DNA of 64,000 nucleotides. Origin: Eledone cirrhosa. Lineage: Eukaryota. Under the pieces are notes generated by a model. The model was not told the DNA's origin. It searched no databases and saw only the letters and a program-made list of their open reading frames with translations. Below, in pieces: positions 13,151-41,300 of this stretch (the first letter of the stretch is position 1; every line of letters starts with the position of its first letter). The translations under genes and the position numbers were made by a program. The DNA lies in the NCBI GenBank assembly GCA_964016885.1, contig CAXHJY010001528.1:1-64000 (forward strand), in the 5' to 3' direction.

Positions 13151-14319
13151 GAGGCAGACATATTACTGATTTACACTTTTTAAGAATGTCTTGCTAATGT
13201 ATTTTCATGTGCTAAAGGATGTTAAAAGTTGAAATACAAAATAAATACTATAATACTTCTGCACTTCTGCTTCTTTTGTCTTCTCCTTCTCATATAGTTA
13301 GATCCACAAGCAAGAAACCAAATTAGCTTATTGATGTTATCCAACCATCTTGTTCACATCCTACCCATGGACCACCTGCTGGTTGGCTTTGCCTATAAAA
13401 TCTCTCCAGCAATTCTTTCCTTACACATTCTAACCTCATATCTGTAGTACCAGGTCAAAATTTCCTATTCATTGATATATCCTCAGTCCCAGCCATACAT
13501 TTTCCTATGCAAAGATCAGGGAGAGAAAGCATCCCTCCTGAGGAAGGAGTCTTGCGAAGAGGAATGGCTGATGTTGCAAATGTCGCTGGTTGTTCTCTGC
13601 AGCAATGCTTTCACCATCTGGTGTTTGGGGCATAGCTGAGATATACAGCCCAGCCAAAGGTATGTCATTGCCTTGTCCATGGTATACAGCCGAGAGATAC
13701 CACCGCAGAGTTCAGCTGTGATATACCACGACTTGGTAAAGATGAGATATACAATGACAGGGCATAGCTGAGATATACCACCACATGGTAACAGCAGCAG
13801 TGGAAGCATTTCTGAATTGGGATGGGGGGACAATTTAGTTGTAGTAATTAGTTTAGCTCTTTGCATTCTAAAATGGTCAGAAGATACAATTCAAGTCCAA
13901 GCAGATCATATTTTCAATAATTCTAAAGTGATTATAGCAAAATGACCTATGACATATGTCACTGAATACACATACTAGCAATTGGCAAATAGTTATATGT
14001 GTAGTACACTGTTATTATCAAATATCAACAGAGATATAAAAAAAAATTCGATATGTGATAAATATAACATGTACATAAAATGTAGCACATGTACAAAATA
14101 GATATGTGTTTTGGTAGTTTGAGGAGAAAAATATGGGGAGGGCACTCCAGTAAGGGTGATAGCAGCGATTCTTTGCTTAAACTTTAATCTGTTATTTTAA
14201 TAAATATATAGATATATATATAATTATTAGATCGCTAGTAAAATAACGTGTTCTAATTTAATAAGTTCGAAACTTCGGCTAGAATAAAAAGATTAAATAT
14301 ATTTTAGAAGGAAAAAGAA

Positions 14320-14488: not shown

Positions 14489-17400
14489 ATGAGTGGCCAC
14501 CATCGTGGTAATTTTTCTGTCACAACTGGAAGGGATGGTTCTCGTTCAGTTTATGGTAAAGTATTCACAAATCCTGTTTCATTTTTTTTACATTCTCGCT
14601 CCTTTTCATTTTACAATTATTTTCCCTATCCTTCTCGTTTTTTTGTTTTTTTTCTGTCAACCATCAGAATTTTTTTATTAATTTATCTGTTATCTTTTAG
14701 ATTCATAAAATCGAACCATGTCTAGTTTAAAAGTTACGATCAGTTATAATATATATATTTGTGTGTATATTCACATGGAAACATCTTAGCAAACAATGGC
14801 GTTCACTTGCTCTCCTTATGGCTTACATTTGATTCTTATTTTTATTCATATTTCTATATTTTCATGAGTTCACACCTTTAAAATCTGTTTTTAAAACCAA
14901 TATATATATTTAAAAAAATACATATCTGATGATTTGTTATCTTAAAAGAATTTACGTATAAATTAGAAATACAATTATTACACTCTAATACTAGCTATTT
15001 GTGTTATATAAATTTAAGTTAAAACGAATTAATTATTGATTTTAAACCATTACCATACCATTCACTTTTTAAGGTTACGCTGTCATATTTTGTGTTTATA
15101 TAAAACCTTTTTTTACCATATTGAACTATTTTAAAGTTTTCCTCCGTGTTATAATACAATTATTAATGATTGCGCCTGTATATTTTATTACATTTATATC
15201 AGATAGAAATACATATATATAATCAATTTATTATATATATGTATTTATGTTTGTATAAATTGAGATCGATAATAGCAACATTTTTTTTTTCTTTTTGTGT
15301 ACATAAGGATAAAACATTAAAATATTTTCTATCTCATGTTCATTGCTTTGTAAGAAATTTTTTCATTATTTCTGTTAATGTAATAATGTACCAACCAGTA
15401 AACTACCCAGTGCGTTACTGATATTTTATTTTATCCACCCCGTAAGGATGAAAGGCAAAGCTGACCTTCGTCTTAATTTTTACGTGGTTGATAAAATAAA
15501 ATACTAGTAGTCGACCCCGTATGGATGAAAGGTAATGCGAACCCCAGCCTTTCATTCTTAAGGGAGTAGATTTAATCGACTTTCCCTCCTTCCCTTCAAA
15601 TTGCTGTCCTTGTGCCAAAAGTAGAAACAAGTATTTATATCAATGAACTCTAGTATGCAACACTTAGACTTATCTATGACGTTATTCGAACGAACGAATT
15701 ATCGTCGTTCTTAGACTATGAACAAGGATGTCGACGTGATAATGGAAAAGTATTGTTCTATTGAGTCGTTTACACAATTGTATATACTTCTTGAAGTATT
15801 TTATTTTTATAAAAAGAAGTTATACAATGGAAGATAAAAACAAAATTGAGTGGGGCTGGGTGTAAAAAAAGGCAGATCTGGTTTATGGGAAAATAAAGGA
15901 AAGGGCTATTGTTGTTAAATCCTTATTTTCTTGCAATCTTGAATTTATAATGAAATAACTTTCACGTTATCATTAAATCCTTATGGAAATATATATATAT
16001 ATATGAGGTCGATCCGCCATCTGGCTGGCTAGAATAATCGGAGGCGTTATGGTATTCACATTCATTATTGAATAAACGCGAAATAAATAAATCTTGTTTG
16101 GTGAACTGAGATAAAATTTATTTAATAAAACAAATATTAAAAGCTTTTCGTGTGTTGTCTTGACTTGAATTTTCGGGTATTATAGAATTTGAGATAACTT
16201 ATTAGTCACATGGAGTTCAGAGAAATTAGATTTTTCTTAAAGAAAGGGGAAGGACATTGCGTTAAATCTCGTTTAGTCGAGAAATGATCTCGTTTGTTCA
16301 TGAGGCGGGTGGATCTTTAGTTTGTCAACAAATATAACAATTATTGTAATTTGCTTTTGTTACCTGGAATTAATGTTAACAATTCTGGCAATTAAAGCCT
16401 TAAAATTAAAAAGGAAAGTAAAAAAAAAAGCGAAATACGAAACTCCTCGCCGATCCTCCCTATTGCTGTCGTAAATTATAAAGAATACGTTTAGTAATGT
16501 ATTCTGTTATTCTGGTTTATACCAGAATTACAGAATACAAATACGGACGTGATTAAATTTTGTAAAGGAAAAGACATTACTACCTCCAATATACAACGCA
16601 ATTGTATATTGGGCGTTATTTTGTTTTTTTTTTGTTTTTAGTTTACTAGACCTCGTAAATGTAAACGTGGTTTCTCATCTATTATTAGGGTCCTAGAATT
16701 TATCTTAAATCGAGTTTTATATGAATAAAATGGAATCAAACTCTTAACATCCTGTAATGCTTTAGCAGAAAGTGTTTTAAAACGGTTTTGTTAATTCAAA
16801 TGTTTGTAGTACTTCTGAACGGATTGTTGCGGAAATTTGTAATATTAGACTAAAGATTTTAGGATTTACTGTAGTGTAGTCAATTATTCTTTTTAAAAAG
16901 TGTTGTATATGCGTGGTTAATAATTTATTACGTAATAAATAGATAGGTACACTCAAACTACTTTAATTCCTGACACTATACCTCAAAGGATTTTTGGAAA
17001 AATATATACTCAAACAGCATTATGACTGCATCATATAAGATAGTCTTTATTCAAATACTACAAATTTTCACAATTTGTTAGATTAACAAAGCCTTTTAAT
17101 GCTAAACCGTGACAGAATGCTAAGAGTTAAAGCACTTTTGTTCCAAAGTCCGAGGAAAATATGTATTTTAATTAAACATTAATTTTTAATATCTCATCGA
17201 AAATTTTAATGTTGATGTGTATAAGCAGGAAGACCTTGTTTTTTGTTGGGGGGGGGGGGGGTTCAGATTATTGATATTTGTATTCTTTTTTATTTTTTTT
17301 CATCAGATGATAAATCAAGACCTTTCTACAAACGCTCCAAGTGGCATGGAAGAGGTGGAAGACGTAACAGAAAAGGTTGGTTTTATTAATTTATACTGAT

Positions 17401-17559
17401 CCAGATACAGGGGGGGGGGGGGGCACAGTCTGAGCAACATGGTCACCGGAGCTGAATTGTCTCATAACGGTACAACCTGACTAACTCATGCAAGAGTGGA
17501 AAATGAATGTTGTGATACTTGCTTATGAAGTATTTCTGAAAATGCAAGAAATAATGTTC

Positions 17560-17591
<32 letters not shown>

Positions 17592-20500
17592 TCACACCTG
17601 ATGTAAAGGAACTGGGTTGGATTTGGAAGAATAGTTAAGTAGGGCAGGTGGAACATTTTGTGTGTGTGTGCTAAGGGTAAAAATATTGAGGACTGTCAAT
17701 GATCTTGGCTTGCTGGAATGTAGCACTGCGTGAGGAGAAAGAACTGTTATATTTTGTTGTATTTGGAAATTGCAATTTTGGGACAGCAGATATTTTGAGT
17801 AGGATGAGAGGAAGGAAATCAGAGATAGGAGTGTGTAAGTAGCTTTAGAATGAACAGATGTAGAAATATCAGGGGAGTCTATAATAAAAGATATTGAGGA
17901 TGGGAATAGAAATATAATTGGTAAGTAGCAATACAATCTCCATAAAACTTACGAAAGCAATTGATTTATCCCTTTAGTTGTGTCAAGGACATGACAGCCG
18001 CCTTAATGCTGGTGATTTGCACAATAAAGGCACCCAGTACAAGCTGTAAAGAGGTTGGTGTTGGGAAGGGCATCCAGCCATAGAAAGCATGCTAAACAAG
18101 GGTTTAGGAGGACCCTTCAATTTGTTTGAAAAGACACAACTCCTCTGCACTCTATAACTATGTATGCAGGATATAGACTCTTCGGCATGTCTGGAAGGTC
18201 AGTAGACCCGTCCAACCCTTGCTAGCAGGGAAAGCGGATGTATGATGATGATAGTACAATAGTACCGTTGCAATTATTGTTGTAATGGCTGTAAAATTCA
18301 GGGGTATGCAGAGCAAACATCTGGGTTTCAGTAGGATCCACTGAGAGGTTAGCATAACTAAGGCTCATATTAGTACCCATGGCCACATCAATAGTCTTTT
18401 ACTACAACTCAGGGAAAAATCATTTGAGTGAAAATGAGTTAAACTAAACAAGTGTAGTGGTGTTAGGTTCAAGTTAAGAGTCTATCATGTGTATGGTGGT
18501 ACATCTGTGGTGAATAGTTATGTGGGTTTAGAAGAGCAGAGTAGGGAAAAACCTGAAAAATTAAGACTAGTGCTTGTTTGCATCATCCTGTATGACTGAT
18601 GTGTGAGAACTGAACTTATTCAAGTTGGAAGTATTTCAGTAATTTTACCATTGCTGAATGCTCTATATTCCCACTTTGAATTTTGTGTCAGAAAGGCGCT
18701 TCCTTTGGTTTGGTTATAGACTCTGAATGGGTTGTGTAGTTATGGCAATGCCCCTCCCAGGGTTGACTGCTGAAATTATGGATTAATATGATCAAGTCAG
18801 ATCTTGAATTAATATCTGGTCCTCACACATATAGTGTCAACCATTGACAATCTCTTATGTTGGATGTTCGTAATGGCTGATGCATGGTAGGCTTTTGTTT
18901 GTGTCGATTTACTGATTTGAGCTGGCTCAAGTGGGCAGTTAAGTACACTACATAAAAGGGAATGGTTAATAACATGTCGTCTTTTTAAAAACCATCTTAT
19001 TTTTTTTAATGTTTGGTTTCTTTTCTTCAGGTGGTGCTGGTGGGGCAAACCCCAGATCCCATCTTGATGATGATGAGGATTTCCAAATGGGGGACGATTT
19101 GCCAGGGGTCTCAAATCAAAGACAGTAAGTTATATTTGAATAAATAGACAAATGTATACTAAAACACCTTGCTTTTGTATTTTTGTAAGATTCTTCAAGT
19201 GATATCATGTGTTGACTCAAATTCAATATTGATTTTTCAGTGTGCCTTATCACAAAAATCGCAGGAAACGACTTCAGAATAAGATCTTAGAAATGGATAA
19301 AGTTCAGACTGGTGAGTTTAATTATAATTGAAGTATTAACCCTTTAGTGTTCAAACCGCCCGAAATTATTTCCCCTTCATTTGTTCAAACCACCCGAAAA
19401 CACCCACACTAAATCATTCTAAAAATAAACAAACCATCATCAAAACCTCGTCAATTCGAGGCTGCTGTGAGATTAGGCCCTTAACGCGAAAATTAACACT
19501 TTATATAGTGGAACAACTTAAAACAACAAGTGTTTTTTTAACTTTGAAAGTGCTACAAATTTTTTTTTTTTTTTTTTTTGTATCAACATGGCTTATGAAA
19601 GTAGCGATACCGACTTTGAAGGTTTTACACACGACGACATTCAGAATAAACAAGAAACAAACGATAATATTAGTGGTTTATCTTCAAATGAATCTGATGT
19701 TTATATGTTTGAAATTTTGTCTGACGATGATTGTTGTTTTGAAAGTGAAAACGAAAAAGGTCTCCAGGGCGCCAATGAAAAAAATACAGCAACATGGTTG
19801 AAAAATACCACACCAATATATGTTCCCAATTTTATTCAAAATACTGGTCCACAACACACATTAGCTCCCGATGCTAAAGCACTGGATTATTTCTTTTTGT
19901 TTTTACCACAAACTTTCTTCGAAGTTGTGGCAGAAGAGATTAATCGATATACCCAAATCAAGGAAAACCCGATCTGTTTGGCGACCGACAGATGCTGCGG
20001 AAATGCAAGCATGTTTTACCGTAAATATTATGTTTGGTATAAAACAATTTCCAAGACTGGAATTACTGGATCACTGATATAATAATATCAAATATTATGC
20101 CGAAAACAACGTATTTAAAATTAAACCAGTATTTGCACCTGGTTGATACTTCAAATGCCCCTATTAATTAATTTCACCTGTCCATAAAAGTCAAATTTGA
20201 CCCAAAATTTATATAATTGTAAATTATTGATATTTAAACATCTGCTGAGAAAATTTCAAGCCTGCACATAGAAAATTAAGAAAATTACAAACAAATAAAA
20301 TTGATAACCCTCTTGGGTATGATTAACTGAAAATAATGCAAACAGATAAGCATAACTTTTGAAAATTAATGTGAATACTAAAAGGTTAAAGTGATACAAA
20401 AAAAACAGATGTTTATGTTTAAAACTTTTGATACTAAACCACCTAAAACTGCTCTTGGTTTTTAAATGCAGAACTGTTTATATCGAGTTTATGTAAGAAT

Positions 20501-22721
20501 CTTAATGAAGAATGAGAAAATTAGATATTTTACTAAATTCTTCCAAATTTTTATACCCATAATTTGAAAATCATTGGCAGTGGATTCCATCAGAAATATA
20601 GTAAAAAAAAAACTAATTTCAGACTATAGAGTCTGTTCACCTCAATATTCATAATCTCTATATATTAAATTAATAGCATAACTATTAATTTGTTGTACAT
20701 GAGACATGTTTCATTAGGAATTGTTTTGAGGTGCATGGCCTCATGGTAAAGGTGTTAAACTTTGGAATATAATGCTGTTAGTTCAATTTCTGGACAAGTG
20801 TGTTGTGTTCTTGAGCAAAATACTTCATTTCACATTGCTGTAGTATACTCAGCTGAAAATGAGTATCAGCAATAGCTGATGGTTTAACTATGCAATGGAC
20901 TGGCTGCCTGTCCAGGGGGAAGTCTTGTATCTAGTCACTTAATGCCACAGGAACTGGGATAAGCACCAGTCTGATGAGAATCCGGGCTCGAGACAGACTT
21001 TACACTTATTTTTAAAATACAAATGGCATAAATTTTGAATTTAAAATTTCATATTTACTCTCACAAGAAATATATTTCCGTGACACTAAAATCTATTAAT
21101 TTGATTTTTGTAATTTTAGGTCGATTAAAACGACTTGGCTTGCCAGTACACAACAACAACAACAGAAATAATGTCACTTGGTATCGTGTAAAGGTATTTA
21201 AATTTTGACTTTTATAAAAATTCCTTATATCTTTTATATGCCATACAGTGGGATTGAATCCAGAACCCTATTGGTCAATTTAATGACTGCAAACCAGGAG
21301 TTGAAATCCCTAAAGCAATGCGATGTTGTCTTAAGTGAACTTAACCATACAGCTATGCTTACACATTTAGTAAGTTTTCTGATTATGTTCTGATTGGGTT
21401 GCTCATACCAGTAATATACTCATGTTGGTTAATATTGATATATGTGTTTGTCTATGTATGTTGGTGACAACAAAAAGAACCTGATCCTCCCTGTAAGATG
21501 GTTGTGTTTGTGACACAAGAAAAAAAGCACCTAGTCCAACCAATGGATTGATTGTACCTGTAATTTGAAGGCCCATCCTTATATATTGTCATGCACGTCC
21601 TGTGGAATGCAGTCATATGTCATTCCAAAGTCTTCGATGTAGGCATGCATCCTGGCAGTGAATATTTAGTCGGGTGTGTTGTCTGGGGCGAAAACCACAC
21701 TTCGTCAGCTAGCATGGACTTGACAATCTCCCTACATCTCTTTGCCAGACACTTAATATAGATTTCACTGGGGAGGCTTAACAAGGAGATCCCTCTATAA
21801 TTGGAGCAATGCCTCTTGTCTCCCTTTTTGAAAATTGGGATTATCACTCCCGATTGCTGCCTTTCCAAAGATCCAGACCACATGGCACACATGAGTTTCA
21901 CAGCGAATACTTTCTTTATTTAAGGCTTTTAACGACTTTGGACAAATTGCATCATCCCCATTGCAAATGGATGATTCTAACAGGACCCATTGGAAGGAGT
22001 GTTTACGGACTCTTCCTTCACAACCCTGCCAGGAATAAGTGGGCAAAGAAGATTTAACAGAAATGTTCTTTGTTAAAATTAGAAGATCCATCATTATAAT
22101 TGATGAATTGAGTTAAATCTTTTTTTCCCCCCGTGTTTCTAAAATAAGTATCAATGTTATGTGGGAATGGTGGATGATAAATTTAACACTGTTGATGATA
22201 TTTGCTTAATTTAACATGATGGATTTTTTTTTTCTTTTTCTAGATACCATGTAGACAAAAATTGGAAAAGCATTTTATTATGAGAGAAATTGAAAATCGC
22301 ATTAATATGCCTTTCCAAGCATCATGTGTGAGTGTCTTACATTATTTTCGTTTATATCTATTTAATTTATTAACTTTTTGTTTTGTGAAAAAATACTAAT
22401 ATTTAAATATTTAGCACTTTTGATACCAAACCACTTGAAACTGCTCCTGGTTCTACATTACAAAGCTGTTTACTTTAACGTGTATATATGTTATCTATAA
22501 ACCTTCCATCATAGTTTTATGTAAGGACCTTTCTTATTTTCCAAACACTAGCCACTGGTTCTATGATACAAAACTTCAAACTGGAAGTTCTGTGAAAACT
22601 AAGGGCAGTCACAGATGGGTTGGTAACAAAAGGGTTAAATTGAATTGAAACTATTTCTCAGTCAGGGTATGGAAATGTGATTATATTTAATTAACACTTG
22701 CCTGCTGGTGGTTATTTTCTG

Positions 22722-22813
<92 letters not shown>

Positions 22814-25800
22814 ATCTCTGAAATTCAAGATAGTTTTAGAGACCCAATGCCACCTACATAAATGTAGAAGTGCCGACAGGATTTTATCAAGTACATAAAC
22901 TCTGTGCGATTCTTTCACTACAATTTTGTTGATTAAACCTACAAATGTTTTATTAATTGTCGGAAGAATTCTTCAATTATGACAAAGACATGACAACCTC
23001 CTTAGTGCTTATGCCATGATATAAGGCACTCAGAGAGCATGGGGAAAGTATGTGAGTGATACGCAAGCTCCTGGCCCGTCTGAGAGGTTTAGTGACTCTA
23101 CTTGAGTACTGACACGGTCTGTGACCATCAGTCCAATTTTTGCTAGTAGGGAAGATGGACATTAAATGATTTTGTGTGTATGTTGTCATTGTATGTCCTT
23201 ATTTCCACATCGGTATACGTTGGACTACTATCTTTCTAGACAGGCCGACGGCAATGTCTTGCTTACAAACGTTCCAGTTTTGGCAAGGTTTCTACAGCTG
23301 GATTACTGTCCTAATGGTGGGTGCTTTTTATTATGGTGTCAGCACTAGAGGTAGTCATAACCTTGATATGACTGAAGAGGCCTCCTCTCAACTCTTTTGG
23401 CATGAACTGGATGCTTTCCTAACATCAAACACTTTACAGAGTGGCACCAGTACTAGAGAGAGAGTATCAGGTCATTTGTTGTGTGTGTGTATATAGATTA
23501 CTCTTTTGCATGTTCCAGTCAACTGGATGAGGTCATGCTGGGGCACTGCCATAATATATATATTTATTTATTTTACTTTTTCAGTTCAAAAATGAACATG
23601 GCAGTTATTGTTTCCATGTCCAAGATAAAGTTACTGCAGATGCTATTCGTCAAGTGGATAAGAAGATAATGATGCCAGATGGATTCAAAGTAAGTTCACT
23701 TTGTCTTTATTGAAACATATCAACTGTGTCTAAAACTATTTGTGTAGAAGGCTTTAGATCATTATCGATAAATCTAAAAAAATGTCCTGTTCAGTTGATA
23801 TCTGACTGAAGATTTTACAATAGCTATGGTGACTGTCATAGGGCTGTAATCATTTTTCTTGTCTAAAAAAATATGACTGACCTCTGGATTTTCCAGTAGC
23901 TCTGCTGGCTTGTGCAGTAACCTCATTTTGTGTCACTGTTGGAGGCGCAACTCTAATGTATGTATGTACCTGTTACTCCTGGTAGTGTTGTAGTGCTGCT
24001 AACTTAGCTTGTCTTGGGGTGTGGCGTCACCTCTCCAGGTCTGAACAGTGATTGAGGATAAGTGAGAAAGTCGTATGGAGGCAGAATTGATCCTACTTTT
24101 AAGCTGGTACTTTTATTATTGGCTTCAGAAATAGTGAGAAAGCAATATAGTGGAAGAATCAACCTTAGTTCTGGAGTGTTTCTTTTTTTATTGACCCTGA
24201 AAGCTTGAGAGACATTGTTGACCCATGAGATTTTAACTCAGTTGAAATGAATACCACAAAGCATTCTATCATGTTTTAACGACTACCAATTCGCCACATT
24301 ACATGTGGTACCTGCTGTGAATGTTTGTTGATAAAGGGCCTGTTGTGGTATAAATTCTAATCTTGAAAGATTCCATGTTTTTACATTGGCAATAAAAGTG
24401 ACTATGGTTAGATGGTTTTTAATAAACTTTTAAAATACTTAACCTTATATAATTTCAGTTGGCCATAATTGTGAAGCCTTCTTGTGCACCTGGGTTGACC
24501 CTGGATGATAAAACACTGGAAAAACTAAAGGTAATCATTTCTTGTAAAATTATTAGAGATATTTGACTCTCTTCCCCATTTTGTGATTACCTGCATATAT
24601 CATAATAAGTAGTATTTTTGCGTAATTTGTGGCAGTTAGTGCTAGAGGTAACATCCTCTGTAAAGTGGTTGGTGATCAAATGGCAATGATAGAGGTAGAA
24701 AGGACTCTTCAGTTTTGCCAAGTACATGACAAACCTCTCTAGTGCTAAATTTAAAGTGGTAGTGTTGGTGCCACGGTAATATACACCCAGTACACTTCAT
24801 AAGGTGACTGATCGTGTTAGAAAAGACAATCAACCATATAGACCACACCAAAAACACATGAGCAAGATGTGGTTCTTTGTGCCATCTAATCTTGAACCTT
24901 GGTGACCTCTTCAACCATTATTGAAAACAACTTGATGATAATGATGAGGGCATTCAATCGTTTAAGATCAAAACAAAATGAATTGTGGACAGTAGTGATG
25001 GTGTTAAACTGATAATATTAATTAGGATAATGATACATAATTAATTTTTCTCATTTTAGCTTTGCTTGAGTGATCGATATGATTCATCTATCAAAATGCT
25101 TCGCCTAAATAATTTATATCAAGATGAAAGTAAGTACATTGCGTATTCTTTTTACACTTGTTTCTCTCGGTAAACTTTAAACATCTTATGGATTGATAAT
25201 TTAAGAACAAGTAAAATCATCATTTTTGGCACGTCTTGCATATTCCTCAACTTATAATCAAGTATGGTAGATTTTATTTTAGTGTTGTGAAATACGTTAT
25301 GAAATATCTTCTCATTGTCTTCAATATCCTGTGATATAAAACTATCAAAGTCATTGTATCAATTAATATACTCTTGCAAGCAGGGAAAAGCGGACGTAAA
25401 ATGATGATGATGGTTATTAAAGTCTTCTAAATTTATGATGATAATTTAAAGTTTCTACTAAATGTAAAGTGTATTTATTTAACATTTTTAGTATATAATT
25501 TCCATACGACTAATTATGAAGCCTAATGGAAGCCTATAAGAAAGCATGATCTACAGGATTGAACATATGTCACATTTTCTTGTTTATAAGAACGTACAAA
25601 CTTCCTTGTATATGTATGTGTGTCATGATCAAGCCGAAATATATATGAGGTGTTCTGTGAGAAAGGTGTAAATAACTTTCAAATCAATCTTCACTGAAGG
25701 TTGATTTGTAAGGTTTGGGTTTGTTCTTTCTGCATTGTCTGTTTCATAAATGAATATTTATGTATTTATCTTCTTAAACCCTTTGTTCCTTGTTTTATAT

Positions 25801-28800
25801 TATTTAGTGTTGAGATCTTCTGACGTCTCCCTGGCTTTGAACCGACCACAAGTGATGACAAATGTTGTTACTATAATCAAAGAAAATATTCCAGAAGTAA
25901 GAATTTATTTTATTTTACATTCCTTCATGTCTATCTTATGTAATATATACACACACTCACAAATAATGAATCAGAACATATCAAATATGTTTCGAATTTT
26001 GTGTTTCTCAATAAGCAAACTCAATAGACTTTATCTAGAGCCATAATAACCAAATAAAGAGATATATGTATATACAGAAAGAGCCATATATTGCACAAGA
26101 AACACAGTATATTGTATATATACAATATACTGTGTTTCTTGTGCAATATATGGCTCTTTCTCTTTCTGTATATACATATATCTCTTTATTTGGTTTTATA
26201 TATATATATTTGCAAGAGATGACAAAATGAACAGGCCTGCTTTTTCTTCAATAATTTCTTTTTGTTTCTACTCATTCCTTTATCTTTCTATTTCATCTTT
26301 CATTTTTCATCCTATGACTAGTGTCTGAAACATTAAGACTTTTTTCCTATTATACCAAGTGCAAAACTGATATATTTCTTCATTGTACTGTGTTGTTTGG
26401 TTTGTTATTTCTGTTTACTTTTTGAATATATATATATGAGCCCCTGCCTGTTAGAACATTCGGTAGAGTGTGGTAATGTGAGATGCAGGCACTCCAGTTC
26501 ATCTGAGAGGCCAGTAGCTCTAGGTACTGACCCAGCCTGTTGATGCATCCAGCTTTTAACAATGGATGTTATATGATGATGATGTGACTATATTCTGTAT
26601 TCTCCTCAAACAGTTATATAATTTCAAGGCTGTTAATTTTGTTTTTCTAATTATATTTTCTGAAATCATACAAAAATAATATTTATTGTAAATGTTTGTC
26701 TTATCTGTATCTTTTCAGTTGGTGTCTCTTGATGTTAGTTGCAACAGATTGGTGACTTTGGAATACTTGTCGGCACTAGTCCCACATACCCCTCATTTGA
26801 AAAATCTGAACCTTAGTAAAAATATGGTAGGTCACTTTGAAGTTTTGTTGCTAAAAAAACAACTTGATTTGTTTTTATATTTAACTATTAAAATCAAACC
26901 ACCTGAAACTGTCCCTATTTAACTGTAGAAAACTTTTTAAATGTTTATAATTCTCTAAACTATTTTCCTTGTAATTTAAGTAGGAACCTATGCATGCTCC
27001 AAAAAACTAGCTTAATGAAAAAGTTAGTAATACAGTGGAACCTCGTCTCAAATTCAATTCGTCCTGAAGGCCATTGGTTATCCAAAATATTTGTAAACCG
27101 AAATGTTGAGAGAGAGAGACGGTGTATGAAAGACAGATAGATATCACCACAGTAACTAACTATACAGCAAGTGATGCTTTCCTTCCAATACTCCTAGCTT
27201 GTTGCTAGTTGTGTGTTCATTACAGAAGATACCGTTTGTGAACCGAGATGTTTTATGTTAAAATAAATTGTTCATGAAATGATGTTCCACTGTATTACTA
27301 AATCTCATCAAATTCTTATTTATTTTCAAAATGATTTAAGTATCATTGTCTGTATTTCATTAAAAATATGGTAATAAAAGGGTTAATTTGCTGATTAGAG
27401 CTAATATTTCTTACATTAGTATAGAATTATTTGTTTTAACTTCTGCCTTTTTCTCCTTAGCTATTTGGTTATAGTAAATAATTGTGACAGGAAGCTTTTC
27501 TTGGCTCAGAGGTTAATTATTTTACCCTAAATTATATATGTCTCTATATCATGTTATTAGCTTGTAATTTTTAGGGTGGTGGATTAGCAGTATCGGAGGA
27601 GCATTGGACAACATGCATTGCAGCATATAGTTTCGTCCGTTTACATTCTGAGTTCAAATCCCACTGAGGTTAGCTTTGGGTTTCGTGCTTATGGGATCGA
27701 TAAAATAAAGCACCAGTAACTCACTGGGGGTCGATTTACTTGACTTTCTCCTCTCCGCAAATTATTGGCCTTTTGACTAAATAAGAAACCATTATATCTG
27801 TATGCATCAAGGTGGTGGATTGGTAGAATTGTTAGAACATTGGACAAATGCATTGTGGTATTTATTTTGGCTCTTTATCCTGCCAAGTTTAACTTTGACT
27901 CTCATCTTTCCAAGGGATACTAAAATAAAGTATTAGTCAAATGCTAGGGTCAATATATTTTACCTTTCTTGCTCTCCCCAATTTACTGATTTGTGCTTAA
28001 ATTAGAAACCATTGTATGTATCTACATCTCTTCTGATTACATATCTTACACCTTTTTAACTTATTGTTTTAGCTGAAAACCGTGGAAGAATTGGAGAAGG
28101 TTAAAGACTGGAAACTTGATGAATTGATACTAGAAGGCAATGAGTTGTGTAATAGATTTAAAGACCACTCGATGTATGTCAGGTAATGTAAAGGATAAGT
28201 TGACTTGAGTATCACCAGTATTTCCAGCTCTGTACTTGTTCTAATCTCATGCTGCACACTGAGAAATGGGTATCAGAGCTGCTTAAACCAATAATGTTTT
28301 ATAAGTACAAAGGTAGGACTAATGGATAAACTAACTGACCGAATGTTTATCGTCTGTAAATTAACGAACTTGGATCTTTGAAATGGAGTTACTTTTGCAT
28401 TTAAACATTTTTTTATTTTTTAAATTCTATTTTAAATGCTAAACTAATGTAACTTCCATCATTATTTAGTTTCCTTATATTGGAATCTGTTTTCATTTGA
28501 CCAGAGTTTGGTGTTTGGCAAGCCTAAATACTCATAGTTGATGACTTATGTATAAAACATTTAAAGGAGGTGTGGAGAGTCCCATATGGGCACTGTAGAA
28601 GATTTTGCTTTTGTGTGATGTTAGGGCAGGTTTCGGGTGGTATTGATTCCTCTCTATGCCAACAGAAGCTGCGCAATCTAACAAATCACAAACGCAAATT
28701 TTACAGTACCAAGTGGTCAGTAGAGTGGGAATGTAAGCAAGCAAGATGCAGTCAGTAGTTCTGCATGAGTACTGACCCTGTCTATAACAACACGTCCATC

Positions 28801-29400
28801 CCTTGTTACCAGGGAAAATGATTAAGTGATGATGATGATAATGCGACTTTTAGTGGCAAGGTGTTCTTACCTGTTTGTAGTTGCATGGACCAGGCAATTT
28901 GACCTCCAAATACAGCAGGAAACCAAACACCCATATTGCTGTGTTTTCTGACACTTTATTGATTCTATAGGACCCATGTTAAACTGTATGTTCCCATCAT
29001 GTAAAGACTCCCCCACTGGTCTTGCAGTGGTTAATCCTCAACTGCTTTTGGTATTCGTTGGGGTTTTTTCAGTTAAGTGGACTGGGGCAGTGTGAAATGA
29101 AGCGTCTTGCTCAAGGACACAATGCATTGCCCAGTCCAGTAATCAAACTCATAACCTTGTGATCATGAGTCTAACACCCTATCCACTTGGCCACATTCCT
29201 TCACCTGACTGTGTATGCTTTGTTCTCACCCAATCCTATGACTTGTGTCACAGGGAAAGTTAGTTTCATGGCAACAGTCTTTCTGTGAGGTGTTCACTTG
29301 GCTATAATTAACCAAGTTTGTCCAGTGCTTTACATAGATATGTGTTGTTCATTCACACATGTATGGCTTTCACTTGAAATGGTTACTGTTATATGGACCC

Positions 29401-29435
<35 letters not shown>

Positions 29436-32337
29436 CGGTTCATTCAATGTATTTAATTATTTTCACCTTTTCTTTTTAGATATTTTTTCTAAGGATTACC
29501 ACCAAGTTACCTCTGAATTTTTTTCAAGCAGTATTTGAAGTTTAGAAACACATTTAATTGAGAATTTATGTGTTATTTTTTTTTTTTTTTTTTTTTTTTT
29601 TAATAATATTTAAAATTTAGAAATAGAAAAAATGAGAATATTACTACTCTACATATAGGGTCTCAAGTTCAAATCTTACTGAGGTTGGCTTTGCCTTTCA
29701 TCCTTATGGGGTTGATAAAATAAAGTACTACTGAGGCACAGTGGTGGATTTAATCAACTTAACTTCTCTCCAAATTGCTGGCCTTATGCCTATAGTAGAA
29801 ATCATTATTATTATTAAAGTAATTTGTGGTATGTTAGTTTTAAGGTTCTATAGACACTAAATCACTGTCCAATACTTGAGTGTGTGTTGAGCTTATGTCG
29901 CTGACATATAAATGTATGCATCCATACATATACACCGGCATACATGCAGCCACATAGAAATTTAGTAATTTGAAATTACACACATATATATATAGAAATA
30001 ATAAATACAAAGACCAAAATGTGAAAGGGGCTCGATAAGGATTGTATATATATATATATATATAAGTATATATAAACCTGTAGAGCAAATATTTATTATT
30101 AATACAGATTAGAGCAAAGAATTTCGGCTTTCACCTTGTAAAAAAATCTTCTGAAGATCCTTTGTATGGTGAAAGCAAAAATTCCTTGCTTAAACTTTAA
30201 TCTGTACTAATGATAGATATAGATATGTCAAATTACTATATATATATAATAGCATCTTTATAATATTGTACAAATATCAAGTTTTATATTTTAGTTAGAT
30301 TAGGAAAGTATACTTAATATAAACACAAATATTGAAAACTCTTAGTACCAATCCCTTTCGCATTGTTTTTTTTAATCCATAATATATAAACTGATATGTT
30401 TTATACACACGCACACCCACATACATTACACACATGCATACATACATATATGTAAAATGTCTATTGCTTTTTTCAGCAATCTCAACATGATTAAAGTTGA
30501 ATATTTCTATATGACTTTTGTGAACATTTGTTTTTAAAAAAACTTAATTCAGTGATTATTGTTATCATAGATTTTTTTTTTTTATTGCTATTAATCAGTT
30601 TTTAAGGAGTGATTTGAAATCTATCATATGTGTGTGTATATATATATATTTACATACACCACACACATATACAATAGAATGATTTTAATTTTATTGATTT
30701 CTATATGTAAACTAATGATTGAAAGTCAAAATCATTTCTTTAAATGTCACCTTTCTCAGTTAGAACAGATACACTCTCTCTTTAATGCTCTGTCTCTTTC
30801 CTTCCCTCCCTACCTCTCTCTCTATAGTTTACTAACAATTCAATGTTAAAATAATTGTTCATAAGGCGGTGGATTGGCAGTTTCGGTAGTGTCGGGCAAA
30901 ATGCTTTGCAGCATAGTTACGGCCCTATATGCAGCTGATGTTAGCTTTGCCTTTCATCCTTAGGGAGGCGATAAAATACAGTACCAGTAATGCACTGGTG
31001 TCGATTTAATCGACTTTCTCTTCCCTTCAAATTGCTGGTGTTGTGCTAAATGTAGAAACCATTATTTTCTATGTTAGAGGTTTGGTGTAGAAGCTGAAAC
31101 AATGATGTCTTCAAGTCTTTAGTCCCTCTACATTCTAGGTTCAAATTTCACCAGAATCAACTTTGCTGCCTCTGGTGAAATAGTATCAGGCATGTATTTG
31201 GACTAATTCTGTTGGTCAGCCCTTTCTATTCCACTCTACTCTACAACTAGACGTCTTAATACCAATGTCAGAAATTAGTATTTTATATACTAATACCAAC
31301 ATTTATATTGATTTGGATTAGAAATGATATTTTCCATAAAATGTTTGTAGAAAGGAATTGAACCTTTAATTTTAAAAGTTAATTTGTTTTAAGGTATGCT
31401 AATTATTGATGGTTGAATGATTGCCAATAGTGGAAAAAAACCTGTTTCAATTTGAAACCTATGCTAGCAGGAGAAAAATATAAAGAGTAAATAAAAAATT
31501 TAGAATAATGTGCCCTTCATTCATCATCAATTAATGTTCATTTTCTATGCTAGTATATATTGGATAGTTTGGATAACCATGTCTTGCTTGTTCCATATTT
31601 TGGTGTGGTTTCTATGGCTGGATGTCCTTCTTGATGCCAACTGTTGTACAGAATGTACTGGGTACATTTTATCAGGGCACCAGCATTTGAGAGGTTGTAA
31701 TGTACTCAGCAATTCTATCCCATAGCTTTTGTATGGGAAAATTATTCTCCTTAACTGATTTCTGTTGTGAAGCAGTCAATAGTTTAGTTTAAAAACAAAA
31801 AAATTAATGTAAAAATGAAAACACTCTTCTGAGCGCCAAAGTTGAAGTTTATTGAACTTGGCTGTTATGATGGTGTCACTAAGTTCTAATTTCTATTTGA
31901 AAACTTTCAAACAAAGTGTTGGGAAGTCTCTTTGGCTGTTTCAAAGACATGACAACCTCCCTAATGCTGGTGTCACAAGATGCTTTTGGTAGAGCCACAG
32001 GATGGTATGTTGCGGTCCTGACTCTTCAGAGCAAACAATAGAGTATAGGAACATATACAAATTGCTGCGCTTCCCCCCAACCTTGCCTGGCCTGGCTCAT
32101 CAGCAAGAGGTCAGTAACTTCACTTGAGTACTGATTGGTCTGTGTAATGACACGTTCAACCCTTACTAGCAGAGGAAAACTTACATTAAACAGTGATATC
32201 TCATGTGAGATGAGATTGTTGGGGCCACTCTCACATAAGCAGATTATAAAATAGTTGTATTGTCATGGTTGCAAGGGGTTATTAAATATGATGGAAATCT
32301 ACTTGGAATTTGACATCAGATAAGTAAATATGAAATT

Positions 32338-32368
<31 letters not shown>

Positions 32369-35300
32369 CAAAATTGAAAACCTGAATGAGGGGAAATGAT
32401 CTTCAGTTAGCTGAACTGTCAAATTACTAATCTAAACAAATATATTTTGTTATCAATCTTTATCAAATTAACTAGAGTTTAACCAATTATGTTTTGGTAT
32501 GTATGCTGCTAATTAAAAAGAACAATTTCTCATGATGGTTTCTATACTAATATATTTTTTTAAATTGAAAAATTTAAATGAGAGTTATTGAAGTTTGAAT
32601 GTTGGCATATTTTAATATTAATCTTATATTTTACTAAACAAAATGTAAAAGTCTTGTTAGTGTTGTAATAAAACTAACTTTAATTGTTACTGTTCCTTGT
32701 TACATAACAATACTTTAAACATCTGAATATAACATGGCTGAATGGTTGAGGAGTTCGCTTTTCAATCATTAGGGTCCTGGGTTCAATCTCACTGCATGGA
32801 CATCTTGGGCAAGTATCATCCACCCATCCATGCCTAGTGAATGAGATAGAGTAAACGGAAACCGGATGCCAGTTGCATTGACTGTATTTGTAATTCAAAG
32901 GGACAGTCTTGTTTAACTGAATCTCCCTGAGAATTAGACTAAGATACATGTCTGTGGAATGCTCAGCCACTGACATTAATTTCATGAGCAGGCTGTTCTA
33001 TTAATTGAACAAACAAAACAATCATCATTGAAACTGATTGAGGTCCATTCCAAACATAACTGATTTGATTTTAACCAATACTCTTTTGCTTGTTCCAGCC
33101 GACTAGCTAAGGCCATACTGCTGCACCGTGTTTTTTTTTGTTTTTTTTTTAATTATTTTAATTATTTTTCAGACCAAAATGAATACCTTCTCTCTCTATC
33201 CACTACTATTGCTCTAAGCACAATCTGATAAAATATATATATTTTTTTATTTTATTTTTTTTTTATTTTTAAATTAAAATTATCTCTTCAGATTATGCTA
33301 GCAAGTTAGTATGGCTTTATCTGTTGTAGACTGACACCTCATTTAACACTTTTCATACCAAACTGTCTGAAACCAGCTCTAGTTCTATTATTTACAATAT
33401 AAAAGTATGTTCTAAAATCTTTCGAACATAATTTTATGTAAGAATCCTTATGTTCCAAACACCAGCTTAGTTATGAGAAAGTTAAAATACCAAATCTTTA
33501 TTATTTTAAGATCACAGACAATGTGGTAATGAAAGGGTTAAAACTGTGTTGCTTATTGTAATCTATTATTTTTCAATGGCACAGAAGTGTTTGTTTGTTT
33601 TTTTTTGTTTTTGTTTTAGCTGGCAAAACCCAATTCCTTCGGGTTTTTTTTTTTTTTTTATTCGATATGGTCTTAGTGTTTTGTATTGATTTATTTATTA
33701 AACTTGAAAACAATTTTTTTAATGATCACAAAAATGGACTTGAGTCAAAAAGAAGAAAAGAAAACAAAAATACATTAAATGTTGAAAAAAAAGACTTAAT
33801 TTAAAAAATAAAAAAGTGAAAAATGGCAAAAAAAAAAGTTAAATTGTGAGAAGAAAAAAAAGGAAATATTAAATATAATGTAAAAGATGATTAAAGTGGT
33901 AAAAAATATATAAAAGTATGCTCCTGTAATTTAAATTTGTGATCTGAAAATATTTTTTGCTTTCTTAACCAATTTAATTTACTCTACTTCCATATATATA
34001 TACTAATAAAACTGTTTCATATTCCCATGGTGTGCTTAAGTAACATCATAGAATATCAGTTCTCTCATGAACTTTCATTTATAGTTTTAAAAAACATTTT
34101 ATTTGCCAGGTATAGAAATTTGTTTTACTTAAATTTTAAATTTTTATGCTTTGTTTTAATGAGTACCGCTTTTTTTTTTTTATGTATATACTTCAATTAC
34201 AATTACTTGAAAATGTGAAAACTTTTAAAGTCATCAGAAATATATTGCAAGAACCATGACTAAACTTGGACTGGATAAACTGAAAGTAAAAGATACACCA
34301 AAAAAAAAATGGAAATGAGTAGACAATATTCAAACTATCCTCAAAGACTTTAATCTATTCTCTATTTTGGGAAAAAGAAAGAAAATATTCCTACCTCATT
34401 TTTTTTTATGAAATTCTCAGCATGAACAGACGGAAATTCCTTGTTGCAATGTTATTTGAAGATGTTTATATATACATATATGTTATATATATACACTTGT
34501 ATATATTAGTTATATGTATATATAAAATGTTATCTGGAATGGAGTTCCTGTATGGCGGAAATAAAAAGGAAAGGATTGTCCAGAGAATTGAAGTTTCCAA
34601 CCCAGAAGAAAATGTACGGCTCTTTCCAGTTTTGATGGCGTGAACATATTGGATGCTACATACTGTATGGAATCAAGAAAGAGCTGTGAAGCCATTTGTT
34701 GCATTTGCTCTTTTTTTTTTCCTCCTCTCTTTCACCACCAGCTTGCAGTTATTGTACTGTCACCGATGACGGGTAAGCTTTTCCAGAAGGGAAAACGACC
34801 TATGACAGGGACAGGAACCTTTAACTCGGCTAGAGAGACCAAAGCTTTTCAGACCTTTCCAGCCTTTTTTTTTTTTTAACTTTTACCTTGATTAAAATTG
34901 ACAAACATCAAAATGGAACTTTCAAAAACTGAAACTTCTAAAAACCAAAAATACATAAATAACAAGAAAAACCTAAATCAAATGGACAAATAATTTTTTT
35001 TTTTTTTTTTTTTATTCCTGATTTGATTTTAAAGTGAAATGAAAAATACATATTTTTTTATATTTATCTTTTTTTTTTTTTTTTTTTTAATTTTCAAAAT
35101 CTTTTCTTTTTTTAAATAATCAGTTTTTGTATAAATGTGTGTATGTATGAGTGTGAGAAAGTATGTGTGTAAATGCATGTATATGAAAATATAATTACTT
35201 CTGTGCCAAATTGAAATTTGTTTTTCTTATTTTTCATTTCTTTATTAATAACAGAATAGGAAGCTGAATTCTATTCTGTAAGAAGTCATACTTTTAGATT

Positions 35301-38300
35301 CCCACTAAAAAATATCTGTTCTAATTGAGTGAGTGTATCATATTCGCATTTGTCCAGTCTCTTGGCATGAATTTCAAATGTTAAAAACCAATTTCATATC
35401 AAATCACTTCCTTAATATTGATTTTAGTTGATTTAAATTTCAGAAATTATTTAAGTATATCAATCGTTCCCATACCAACTTTAATCATGTCTGTTGATGG
35501 GGGAGGGATGTTTGTTAATCTTCATGTGTTTCATAATTTCAATTTAAATCTATGAAATGTTTTGTAAATTTGCTTCTACCTTCAGAGCCGTAAGAAAGAA
35601 ATTTCCCAAAGTCTTAAAATTGGTAAGCTATATAATATTATCTTATTTTAAATGAAAGAGCTGTTGTGGTATATGTGTGAATCAAGAAAGTCTTGCGTAT
35701 GTATAGTATTTTATTGATTGATTTAATTCAATGTTAGCATTATGTATTTTGGATTTGTTTGAATAGATTTTTTTTCATTAACCATAATTGGCATTTCTAA
35801 GTATTGCCTTTATGTTGCCATACATTATCTCCTGAACAATTGTTACATGTTCCAATCCAATTTATGGCCTTTTCACTCCCTGGCTGGCCTCTACCACTTT
35901 GTTTGGTTTTGGTCATGAGACACACACATATATATATATATATATATATCCAATCTAATCTAGGGCCTTCTCACTCCAATTGGAGGAGCCTTTCTCTGGC
36001 TGACCTCCACTGCTTTCTGTTTGGCTTTAGTCGTGTCCTCAGAGGTGTACCTGTACACATCATGCTTGACCAATTGCGGGTTGGTGAAACTATTTAACCC
36101 ATAGTCAGGATGTATAGTCATTGACTCTTGAGTTCATCTGCTCTTTTAACAGTTCTTGTTTTTTGTGCTGCTAAGGTTCCACTTAACCTCCTCACTGGAC
36201 CAGAGTCTAGTGGAGAAGCAGGTTGTACTGGGTTACATGGTACCTGTAGCAGGCAGAAGCCTGACCTGACATATTAGTCAGTGAAAAATACATTGATCGA
36301 GTTTTACTATAGCTGATTTAAGTAGAAATTACCTGATATTTTCATTAATATTCTATGTCTAAGAGAGATATCACTCATTTATTTCATTAAACGAGTCTGT
36401 TTTAGTTAGTCTTTGCAGATGAATGTTCAATCAGAATTGATATCTGGGAGTGCTTCAAAACAGTCATTAATTTCCACCTGTATAGCAATAAGCTTGTATG
36501 AATTAATCTATGAAAACTAATTTAAATTAATGATAGCTGAGAGAATGAGTATATTATTAATGGGTGATATAAAGATGGGGAATATGAAATGATGAAAGAT
36601 GTCAGAACTACTAAAAGAATTTGATGATAAATCTATTAATGGCCTTATTGTAATTTTATTGTAGGATTGCCAAGATCTTCCACCACCAATTGTCTTTGAC
36701 TTAGAATCTGATATTGATCTACCTCCTTCGAAAGATAACTATTTCATGAATTCTGATGTTCAAAATTTACTGGTTAAATTTTTGAAACAGTATTATTTAA
36801 TTTATGACTCCGATAACAGACAACCTTTGGTAGATGCTTATCATGATCAGGTAAATGTTTCTTTAATATTTCTACATTAATTATACCTCAGGTTTTTGAC
36901 GTCTCTCAAGATATACAATCTTAGTGCGTCCATCCAACGCCTCCCAGGACGTATCACAGGCCCATCGCCAGATTTTACATATGTGATGGGGACTGCAATA
37001 TATTTTTCCAACAGGCCCCTCTAACTAAGGCCTGAATGCATCGGTCTTTGTTAACCCAAGCGAGATGGACAAAGCAGTATAGCTGCCTTTGTTGTGCCTT
37101 GCCATATTACAGTGATTTTTGGTGGTCTTAGTTGTGTCAGTCACCAATTTCTACTTTTCTCAGACCCAATGGACCGGGTGTTTGAGGACTGCCCTCGCAA
37201 CCCTCTCAGAAATAAGTGAGCAAAGGAATTTTTAACATACAGTTCAGATGTTAATTCCTCTGTTATATTTCTTGAACCTTTTCTTTCAATTATAAGACAT
37301 TCTCTGTATTTATGTGACATGTAAAATTTTAAATTGTCATTTAACATTTATCCATTTCTTTGTAGGCTATATTCTCATTTGCCTGCAACTTCAACCGTAT
37401 ACTTGGCAAGTAAGTACATTATATTCCTGTTTTCATTTTTTTTTTTTTTTTTTTTTTACGACATGTGGAGGCACGTGTTAAGGGTGTCAGACTTAGAATC
37501 ATAATATTGTGGGTTTGATTTCTGGACTGGATTGTATGGTATGTTCTAGAGCAAAACACTTCATTCCACATTGTTCCAGTATACTTAGCAGAAAATGAGT
37601 ATCAGCAATAGCTGGGGGATTTACCCCTATGTTGACTGGCATCCTGTCCAGGCGGATGTCTTGAACTCTCAATCGCTTGATGCCACGAAAACTGGGATAA
37701 ACACTGGCCTGATGGACCTCCTGGCTTGAAAAAGACTTTAGACGTTTTTTAGCAGACATTAATCTGTTGTTAAGAAATTAGCTTCACAACTGAATTGTTT
37801 GGGATTTGATCTCACTACACAGCATTTCGGGCAGGTGTTTTCCTCTGTAGCCTGCCTTAGTAGTACTTCGTGATTGAATCTGGTTGTTAGAAACTGTAAG
37901 GAGTCCTGTGTGTGTGTATGTGCATGAGGCTGTCTCTGTCTTCATATCAAACCATTCAGCAAGAAGTAGTGATGTGTGTTTGTGACTGCTGAAGTTTGTA
38001 TGAAGTGTATGTGTTTATAGGCTCTTAGTTTGACAAAAAGTGATTTGTAAAGTAAATTAGAGACATGAAAAAATGTGGACAGTTGGGATCAATATGTTCT
38101 ACTAGATCAGGGGTGTATCTAAGCATGGTCACATTTTAATGGCTGGAACCAACAAAAGAATTTATATTTTATGGGGTCGATAAAATAAAGTACCAGTAAT
38201 GCACTGGGTAATTGTTGGCCTTGTGCCTAAAGTAGAAACAATTATATTTATGGCTTTTCTAATATATTTCAGGCAGCCATCTTTGAATGAATATATCACT

Positions 38301-41300
38301 GAAAGTAGGAATCTACTTAAATTAAATGTTGGTAAGTTCCACATATTAATGTCTCTTTACTATATATTTTTTTCTTCTATTTATTATTCACTTGAAGGCA
38401 GTGGATTGGCGGAATCGGTAGAGGTCTGGCAACAGGCTTTGAAGTATTTGTTAAAACTCTTATTTTTCTAAGTTCAAATCCTACTGTGGTCAACTTTGCC
38501 TTTCATCCTTCCAGGGTCAGTAGTGGGGTTGATGTAATCGACTGCCCCACAAATTGCTGGCCTTGTATTTAAATTAACTATTATTTATTATTGACTTATT
38601 GTAATTTGTTTTGATACTAACAGGTCGTCGAGATAAGCACTTAAAAGTTGGCCGGATTAATGTTGTTTCACAACTTCGGTTATTGCCAAGAACACAACAT
38701 GACCTTAATTCATTTCACATTGATGTTCAACATCTGTCGGTAAGAATTACTCACTTTTCATACCAAACCTCATGAAACTTGCCTGTAGTTCAACTAAGCT
38801 GTTTAAAGCATTTGTTTTTATTTAAAAACCTTCCATCATAATTTTATTTAACCCTCTATATTTACTATTGTATTTTCATTGTAAAAGCTTTACCTTACAT
38901 AATTATCTCACATAATATCGAATCTAGGAGATTTTGCTATTATTTATTTTGAGAACAATACCTTAACATCGGTATGAGCAGCTGGTTACAAAGTCAATAA
39001 TGATTAACATCTATATTAGTTACTTATAAAATATTTATTTTATTTTTCTAATGATGTTAATTTTTCTTCACTTTATCTAAACTATTAAAATCTTCCTTTT
39101 TCTCTTTCAGAGAACATTGCTTATTTTCAGTGTTTTTGGAATTTTTAAAGAAAGTAAGTGATTTATAATCCGACTTCTGATAGCTTATTAACTTTTTATA
39201 CTCTTGTAATGTGTATGTTAAGTATTTATTTTAATAAATCTAGAGACACATGTTGCAAGTTGAGTTTATCACTTATGCCCCCAACCTGATGAGCCTCTGC
39301 ACTCTAGACATTTTAGATATTAGGTTACTATTTGTAAGGCACAGTAAATAAAAATTTAGGTAATTATTTTTAATAAAAAAAATATTGTATTAACTACACT
39401 CTATTCATGCAATATGGAAGACTTAAATAAACAAAAATTCATTTATAGAATAAATTTGGTCTTTTGTTTTTAAATGAAATTAAGAATTTTTGATAAATTT
39501 CCAATAACTACACTCACAATCCATGTACTGTCGTGATATTAAATATAACTTATATGTAATACAATTTAGTATTTTATCATTAACTTAATTCAAGCATTAT
39601 TTTAGTAAGATGGCATTAGTTTTTGTTGAGTTTTAACTATACAATAATTACTGTGGTAATGCTTCAATGTATGGTATGTTTTCCTTTTTACAGCTGAATC
39701 CAAAGGGGAACCTCCAATACGCACATTTAGTCGTATGTTTATTACAACCCCACAGCAAGATGGGTAAGATAAATCTATATTCAAATTCTACAACAGATTT
39801 TTTAACACCTGTTCATTCAGTTATTAACTAATCTAATTTGTATGGATGCCAAGATAAGGGACTGTTTAAGAAATTGGCTTCACAATCATATGGTTTCAGG
39901 ATTGGTCAACCCAATCCTTGGGAGTGAAATTTGGTAGATGAATGTTGTGTGGAAGTCAGTCAGTTACTGGTTTCACCTCTCCACCATTGACACATATTGT
40001 GTTGAATTGGTTCTGATTGAGAATTATGTTATGGCTACACATCATTATTTTTTTGTCAGTTTACCCTGTTGCTATGAGTTGTCAGGGTCTAAGACATGAG
40101 GTGGTCATAAAACGTCTTACTTATGTTCTATATTTTGGTATGGCTTTTACAGCTGTGTGTATGCGAATGTGAATATATATATATGATGATGATGATGATG
40201 ATATTGTCTATTGTTTATATAATTTCAGTATTGTTATAGTGAATGATATGTTGACGATATCTAATGCCACACCTGAACAGATACAGGTAAGCAATTTATT
40301 AATTTTTGTCAAATTTCTGACGTGTTTATTGACATTGATTATACAAGTTAAAACCTTATTACAGTCATTGTCTTAACCCTTTTGTTATGAAACAACCTGA
40401 AACCATAATTTTATATTTAAAAAAAACAAGTTATGTTCCAAAACACTAGCTTAATAATTTTAGTTGTCACAAGATAGCTTACACATTGTGGAACACAGTC
40501 TCAAATTTAACCTTTGACAAATAATTATTGTTATTTTATATTTTTAGTCTGCCTTCAAGACTCCAGCGCCAACGCCTTCATCAAGTCCAACACAAGGAGG
40601 GTCTGCTTTAGCTGAAACTGTTAGTACATCACCTGCTCCTCTCACTCTCCCCACTGCTGCAGCTGCATGCAATGTATCATTAACAGAAATCCAGAAGGAA
40701 ATGATATTACAGTTTTCAATCCAGTCAGAGATGAATGCCGAATACTCATTGGAGTGCCTACAACAAAACAATTGGGAGTACGAGAAAGCTGCACAAGTTT
40801 TCCTCAATCTCAAGGTAAAAATTTTAATTCCTGATCACATTAACCCTTTTGTTACCAATTAAACCAAAACTGGCTCTGGTTCTATGAAATAAAACTACCC
40901 ATTTTAAAGGTTTCCAATTTAAATTAAAATCTTCCAGCATAATTTTATATAAGAACCTTACATTGGGTTATCTTAAATAAATAGTCTGTATTTCATTAGA
41001 ATTATGGTCTTGGAGGGGCTACATAATGATATTTTATTTCAATATTAGTTTAGATGAAGATGGTGGGTTGGCAGTATCGGTAAAGCTTTGGACATCCTTT
41101 GTGGCATAGTTATGGCCCTCTACATTTTGAGTTTAAATCCCACCAAGGTTACCTTTCCCTTTCATCCTTCTGAGGTTGATAAAATAAAATACCAGTAATC
41201 CATTCAGGTCAATTTAATCGACTTTCCCCTCACACCCAAAATTGTTGACCTTGTGCCTAAATCAGAAACCATTTATTAGTTTAGAATTTAGCATCATCTG

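Follow-up and report, generated by a model that had tools for sequence, protein, structure and literature searches.

A CTE-like hairpin in intron 12 of an octopod NXF1 gene and a predicted short NXF1 without an intron-encoded tail

The retention of an intron in transcripts of the export receptor NXF1 is known from several vertebrates. Retention of intron 10 was reported in human, mouse and zebrafish; in zebrafish it was seen by Northern blot, and the short protein was only predicted (PMC4338338). Human sNxf1 comprises 356 aa, including 18 intron-encoded residues, and the short Nxf1 protein was detected in the mammalian brain and acts as a cofactor (PMC5170612). The vertebrate CTEs sit nearer the 5′ end of the intron and also hold a donor-like site, of which no use in NXF1 genes is reported (PMC4338338). 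As for invertebrates, an intron-containing transcript of sbr (Dm nxf1) was described in fly heads (PMC8151460, citing Ivankova et al. 2010), and a search for the CTE in Drosophila and C. elegans found none (PMC4338338). Our search of the literature for the NXF1 intron or CTE in molluscs, cephalopods and other invertebrates found none, and fly or comparative work may already cover invertebrate short forms.

The NXF1 gene of Eledone cirrhosa and its intron 12

The window analysed here is a stretch of 64,000 nt of the Eledone cirrhosa contig CAXHJY010001528.1. The NXF1 (TAP) gene built from it occupies 14489..41521 on the plus strand and consists of 22 coding exons with a single open frame of 643 aa, all 21 introns being of the GT-AG type. 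The product is 90% identical to Octopus sinensis NXF1 (576/641 residues) and a quick tree groups it with those of Octopus and Argonauta. In the 3.0-Gb genome, exon 14 is matched once. Pfam domains were read on P0001, a close relative (90% identical), and then carried to the window protein: RRM (120-198), LRR (210-350), NTF2-like (386-532) and UBA (592-640). Together with a match to human NXF1 in the PDB (E 3e-123), they identify the gene as an NXF1/TAP orthologue. The N-terminus keeps a basic patch and the motif RHVPY, which resembles the RYNPY signal named for human NXF1 in PMC4338338.

Exon 12 (28073..28182, plus strand) is 110 nt long and ends in phase 2 after codon 337 (Val). It is followed by intron 12 (28183..35585, plus strand), which with 7,403 nt is the longest of the 21 introns (median 769 nt, next 2,751 nt), and by the 37-nt exon 13 (35586..35622, plus strand), which codes for the last part of the LRR and is lost from the short form. 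In the Drosophila sbr gene, Mamon et al. in 2013 reportedly described a cassette of a 110-nt exon, an intron and a 37-nt exon, so that the flanking exons presumably have the same sizes in the octopod and in the fly.

By subtraction of the 18 intron-encoded residues from the 356 of sNxf1 as given in PMC5170612, the human junction lies behind residue 338. When P0001 is aligned with the human chain 6e5u_A, Ile-Ser of the latter stands opposite Val336-Arg337, and the human numbers 338/339 assume that this 508-residue chain ends at residue 619. Judged by this alignment, the codon interrupted by intron 12 is the one that human intron 10 interrupts, likewise in phase 2, which bears out the tie to mammalian intron-10 retention drawn in the preliminary description of this DNA.

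The likeness to the mammalian system, as PMC5170612 and PMC4338338 (and Li et al. 2006 as cited) describe it, extends from the codon position to the domains of the short form, the single-loop CTE with an embedded donor-like site and the NMD-type layout. The octopod differs from it in the missing tail (18 residues in human), the length of the intron (7.4 kb vs. 1.8 kb), the location of the CTE, which lies towards the 3′ end, and the loop strand AUGACA, and its short form is a predicted one.

Elsewhere in the window, an unbroken 465-codon frame at 2224-3618 (minus strand), pointing away from NXF1, encodes RWD, RING and IBR domains (an RNF14-like RBR ligase). The 1.8-kb intron 4 holds a 186-codon frame (19522-20079, plus strand) which has no Pfam match and which by eye we take to be like the start of a piggyBac-type transposase. 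LINE-like reverse transcriptase fragments lie on the minus strand at 12841-13170, with an RVT_1 match, and at 21623-21919, with no Pfam match. A very abundant interspersed repeat, seen as depth peaks and joints, occurs at 27560-27820, 29640-29820 and 30860-31060, two of the copies falling within intron 12. Rfam at gathering thresholds gave 0 matches within the window. Among the runs listed for 28073-35622, none is of RNA. Contigs of three of the four runs, compared over 23500-33100, cover exons and introns alike and show no splice joint in the matches listed; they look like DNA and so are uninformative on expression.

The read-through product and the stop in the donor

Exon 12 ends with TAT GTC AG and the intron starts with GTAATG (5′ splice site CAG/GTAATG, 28180..28188, plus strand), so that read-through gives AGG (28181-28183) followed by TAA (28184-28186). 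The predicted product of an intron-12-retaining transcript comprises 338 aa (39.2 kDa) with the C-terminus DHSMYVR. It keeps the RRM and positions 1-127 of the 142 in the LRR profile, about the last 14 being lost, and has neither the NTF2-like nor the UBA domain, just as sNxf1. The preliminary description had given the exon end, the AGG TAA read-through, the length and the C-terminus exactly as the gene model does, and the domains that it assigned to the short form (RRM plus most of the LRR, with NTF2-like and UBA missing) agree with Pfam on P0001. It had also claimed that there is no novel tail, and this holds too: the split codon encodes Arg whether spliced or unspliced, so that the short form equals the first 338 residues of the long one and, unlike sNxf1, has no intron-encoded C-terminal peptide. 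In the spliced form, this codon is Arg in the cephalopods P0001, P0002, P0003 and P0124 and Ser in 18 other full-length NXF1 proteins; the cephalopod short form would thus be an exact prefix of the long form in general.

The same description had treated the stop inside the splice site as something special, and this view did not survive a comparison with the other introns. One of the triplets TAA, TAG or TGA occupies positions +2 to +4 in 19 of the 21 NXF1 donors, which means that nearly any phase-2 intron would stop translation at once, and read-through of the four phase-2 introns (3, 12, 15 and 19) leads to an immediate stop in every case. We therefore rejected the idea that the donor-embedded stop is a selected feature, its occurrence here being no more than chance. 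The immediate stop is a by-product of an ordinary GTAA donor in phase 2; immediate stops at phase-2 GTGAGT and GTAAGT donors are described for Yarrowia (PMC2911113), and this general property of introns fully explains the stop in the window, with no recourse to a regulation peculiar to intron 12. By itself, the stop inside the splice site matters little.

The explanation that we favour, and to which we give somewhat better than even credence, is that intron 12 is kept in a share of the transcripts, which are bound by NXF1, exported and translated into a tail-less RRM-LRR protein of 338 residues. Judging from relatives, a share of the transcripts would keep intron 12, perhaps with the help of a middling donor, the sixth-weakest of 21 by a leave-one-out score built from the NXF1 gene of the window alone, and of an internal decoy site. 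By analogy with mammals, NXF1 would bind the hairpin in the intron and export the retained RNA; translation would then yield an RRM-LRR protein devoid of an intron-encoded tail, and this short form would partner full-length NXF1. The gene structure, the stop, the hairpin and the position of the intron are plain in the window, and the complete autoregulatory module is a prediction from this anatomy.

The CTE-like hairpin and its recurrence

The CTE-like hairpin lies at 34757..34814 (plus strand), with its core at 34763-34809, 776 nt from the 3′ splice site. In the core, CC-GAUGAC-GGGU ... ACCU-AUGACA-GG, a 6 × 6 internal loop (GAUGAC/AUGACA) is placed between the CC/GG and GGGU/ACCU stems, and folding adds a closing hairpin and a lower stem. 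Each of the six core pairs has a probability of 0.94-1.0, and 0.4 kcal/mol separates the CTE-shaped fold from the minimum; shuffled versions of the wider 131-nt region, however, fold just as well as the region itself (z −0.63). The pattern describing the element has one match in the window vs. none in 100 window shuffles, and one match in the 3.0-Gb genome vs. none for the reversed control. The motif in the window thus exceeds chance, and since the pattern was derived from the window site itself, it is tested independently by whether it recurs in a second NXF1 gene. The loop, the stems and the embedded donor-like site are those of a CTE, the deviation being in the loop strand: the window has AUGACA (5/6) in place of the conserved AAGACA, which may weaken NXF1 binding. 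The SRV-1 half-CTE primers given in PMC4330393 have the same stems flanking loops, one of which is the conserved AAGACA. As in zebrafish and coelacanth, where PMC4338338 places the CTE in the orthologous intron, the octopod is an animal with a CTE here, and it is a protostome; in this it differs from Drosophila, for which no CTE was found according to the same source.

A metagenome scan with the CTE pattern returned 11 loci, which comprise nine endogenous betaretrovirus-like pieces along with L007 and L012. L012 is an invertebrate NXF1 gene that a quick tree, with under half of the columns filled, places outside the mollusc clade, near a nemertean. Its corresponding exon, also 110 nt long, ends AG/GTAAAG (Arg, then stop), and the hairpin, with AAGACA intact, lies 904 nt into the intron. 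When intron 12 of the window was compared with the L012 intron, the hairpin was the best match among those listed (E 1.2e-6), the remaining listed matches being poly-T or weak. The CTE that the preliminary description placed in the intron is thus present as a CTE-like hairpin that recurs in L012. L007 carries a full CTE-like hairpin with an AAGACA loop (569-614, minus strand) on a 2.4-kb contig that lacks NXF1 exons and may come from within a long NXF1 intron of another animal. The betaretrovirus-like pieces (L002-L006 and L008-L011) have both CTE loop motifs, which in L003, L009, L010 and L011 are located directly downstream of an env-like frame; four such pieces were folded, and none takes the single-hairpin fold in the scanned windows.

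The comparison with L012 and L007 also bears on the least likely of the explanations considered, a very improbable one, in which the octopod intron 12 is spliced normally and the hairpin is a decaying relic. The window hairpin carries one change per loop strand relative to L012 and L007, the intron is swollen with repeats, and the stop requires no selection, all of which a relic would accommodate. However, both core stems are whole, as is the donor-like site, the outer stems pair through different letters in the window, L012 and L007, no comparable match to L012 occurs in the rest of the intron among the matches listed, and a squid-like short form (P0123) is on record. A pair count on the three-row hairpin alignment alone was dropped as circular.

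The donor-like site within the hairpin, CGG/GTAAGC (34770..34778, plus strand), is a candidate U1 or decoy site and the best of the 406 GT sites in intron 12, with a score of 10.3 vs. 6.5 for the true donor (leave-one-out). A poison exon ending at this donor was considered and found unsupported, the nearby acceptors ranking 44th and 74th of 343. The prominence of the site would suit an explanation that we hold to be unlikely, though it is the main alternative, namely that the intron is kept for control at the RNA level only: nuclear holding by U1 at this very site, or export followed by NMD, would lower full-length NXF1, and no stable short protein would arise. With 7.4 kb of intron and nine exon junctions behind the stop, the retained transcript would be a strong candidate for NMD. 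In the mouse, intron-10 RNA is chromatin-enriched via a U1 site (10.1101/310433) and classed as detained (PMC5963917). Moreover, the LRR is cut short in the short form, and the loss of its last 14 profile positions could destabilise the protein. Against RNA-level control alone speak the short protein of the mammalian brain, detected and acting as a cofactor according to PMC5170612, and the nature of the CTE as an export signal. The AlphaFold2 model of P0123 points the same way, with the RRM and LRR kept at pLDDT 80-91 (in blocks of ten) and a drop only in the last 17 residues, although such a model does not test stability.

Short NXF1 forms among invertebrates and their meaning

When residues 180-337 of P0001 were searched among short proteins, one match, P0123, was found among 121 candidates. 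This protein of 337 aa, present in Logan only (9 contigs, the longest of 1,984 nt), is 79% identical to Sepia NXF1; its residues 1-337 are those of P0124 (637 aa, 2 contigs), and it ends at the junction codon. Its frame is unbroken over what corresponds to 12 exons in the window, which implies a spliced RNA. Of the longest contig, 970 nt are not part of the frame, compared with 245 nt in the full-length form, an excess that intron sequence behind the stop could account for; as the Arg is shared by both forms, a contig end at a branch point, rather than a retained intron, is also possible.

We then mapped the best 150 of 662 HMMER matches to P0123 on the window protein. These are the best cluster representatives, and clustering may split off short forms as representatives of their own; 75 proved full-length and 75 truncated. 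The alignment breaks off at the intron-12 junction in 31 of the truncated relatives and at intron 11 in another 10; each of introns 13-21 accounts for 0-5, and 15 end elsewhere. Ten of the 31 end on the split-codon Arg, tail-less, and the others of the 31 have tails of 2 to more than 100 residues. Such free variation of the tail among animals, from none to over 100 residues, is what would be expected of an unselected protein end under control at the RNA level. The sources of 12 of the 31 are Logan (7), JGI (1), UniRef (2) and NCBI genome models (2). The bivalve-like P0135 and the gastropod-like P0142 also end at the intron-12 junction.

The clearest indication of retention comes from one animal, in which proteins read across both ends of the intron. 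P0167 and P0276 end with YIR where the full-length P0278 of the same animal reads YIS-AVR, so that their last codon uses the first G of the intron. P0277, again from this animal, starts with MVFPIFVFCS, pyrimidine-tract-like, and is joined to every downstream exon. This bears on the improbable explanation that the intron need not be fully retained for the 338-aa protein to arise, polyadenylation in intron 12 or splicing of the hairpin donor to exon 13 being enough. Any transcript that passes the exon-12 donor meets the same stop, so P0123 alone fits each of these routes; intron 12 has 18 AATAAA/ATTAAA hexamers, and its internal donor scores above the true one. However, such hexamers are expected in DNA of 30% GC, P0277, albeit from another animal, joins the 3′ end of the intron to spliced downstream exons, PMC4338338 gives no NXF1 gene in which the CTE donor is used, and the acceptors that a poison exon would need rank low, as stated above.

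The pile-up of 31/75 at intron 12 is biased, the longest intron being the place at which incomplete gene models end and unspliced precursors are captured most frequently. Unbroken frames from the genomic DNA of intron-poor genomes seem to add to the truncated set. Taken with clustering, these biases mean that the counts are not retention rates. The ten relatives that leave at intron 11 are P0221, P0232, P0235, P0244, P0246, P0249, P0255, P0258, P0265 and P0269; the four of them that were looked up are on contigs of 3-29 kb, genomic in look, a sign of genomes poor in introns that have not lost the one before the 110-nt exon. The invertebrate short forms in the collections are predicted proteins, and they speak for retention in relatives indirectly. 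Together, P0123/P0124, P0167 with P0276-P0278 and the 31/75 indirectly support retention of this intron in the transcripts of other invertebrates, a squid-like cephalopod among them. In Drosophila too, an nxf1 intron is kept in transcripts enriched in the head (PMC8151460).

Intron retention in mammals and zebrafish (PMC4338338) and the intron-containing sbr transcript of the fly (PMC8151460) were already known. What is new is a protostome with a CTE, along with database signs of a short form, often tail-less, across invertebrates. It is the cut point and the hairpin that are conserved rather than a tail. The retention device is likely to be far older than vertebrates, the tail-less short form looks common in invertebrates, and the 18-residue tail of mammals is probably incidental. 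A bolder proposal, which we offer tentatively and with more doubt than belief, is that the bilaterian ancestor already had both the retained intron guided by a CTE and a short NXF1 cut at precisely this codon. The form lacking a tail, as in cephalopods and other protostomes, would then be ancestral and made as a stable neuronal partner of full-length NXF1, and the mammalian tail would be a later accident of a changed donor.

The mammalian short Nxf1 was detected via its intron-encoded tail, and either the protein or the RNA control alone may be what matters. A lineage with the CTE but without the tail separates the role of the protein from control at the RNA level: if the octopus makes the short protein, the tail is dispensable and it is the cut point that counts. 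If the proposal of a bilaterian origin is true, CTE control of the export receptor's own message would be placed at the base of the bilaterians, beyond the printed range from fish to mammals, and the case for retroviruses having taken the CTE from a host would become stronger.
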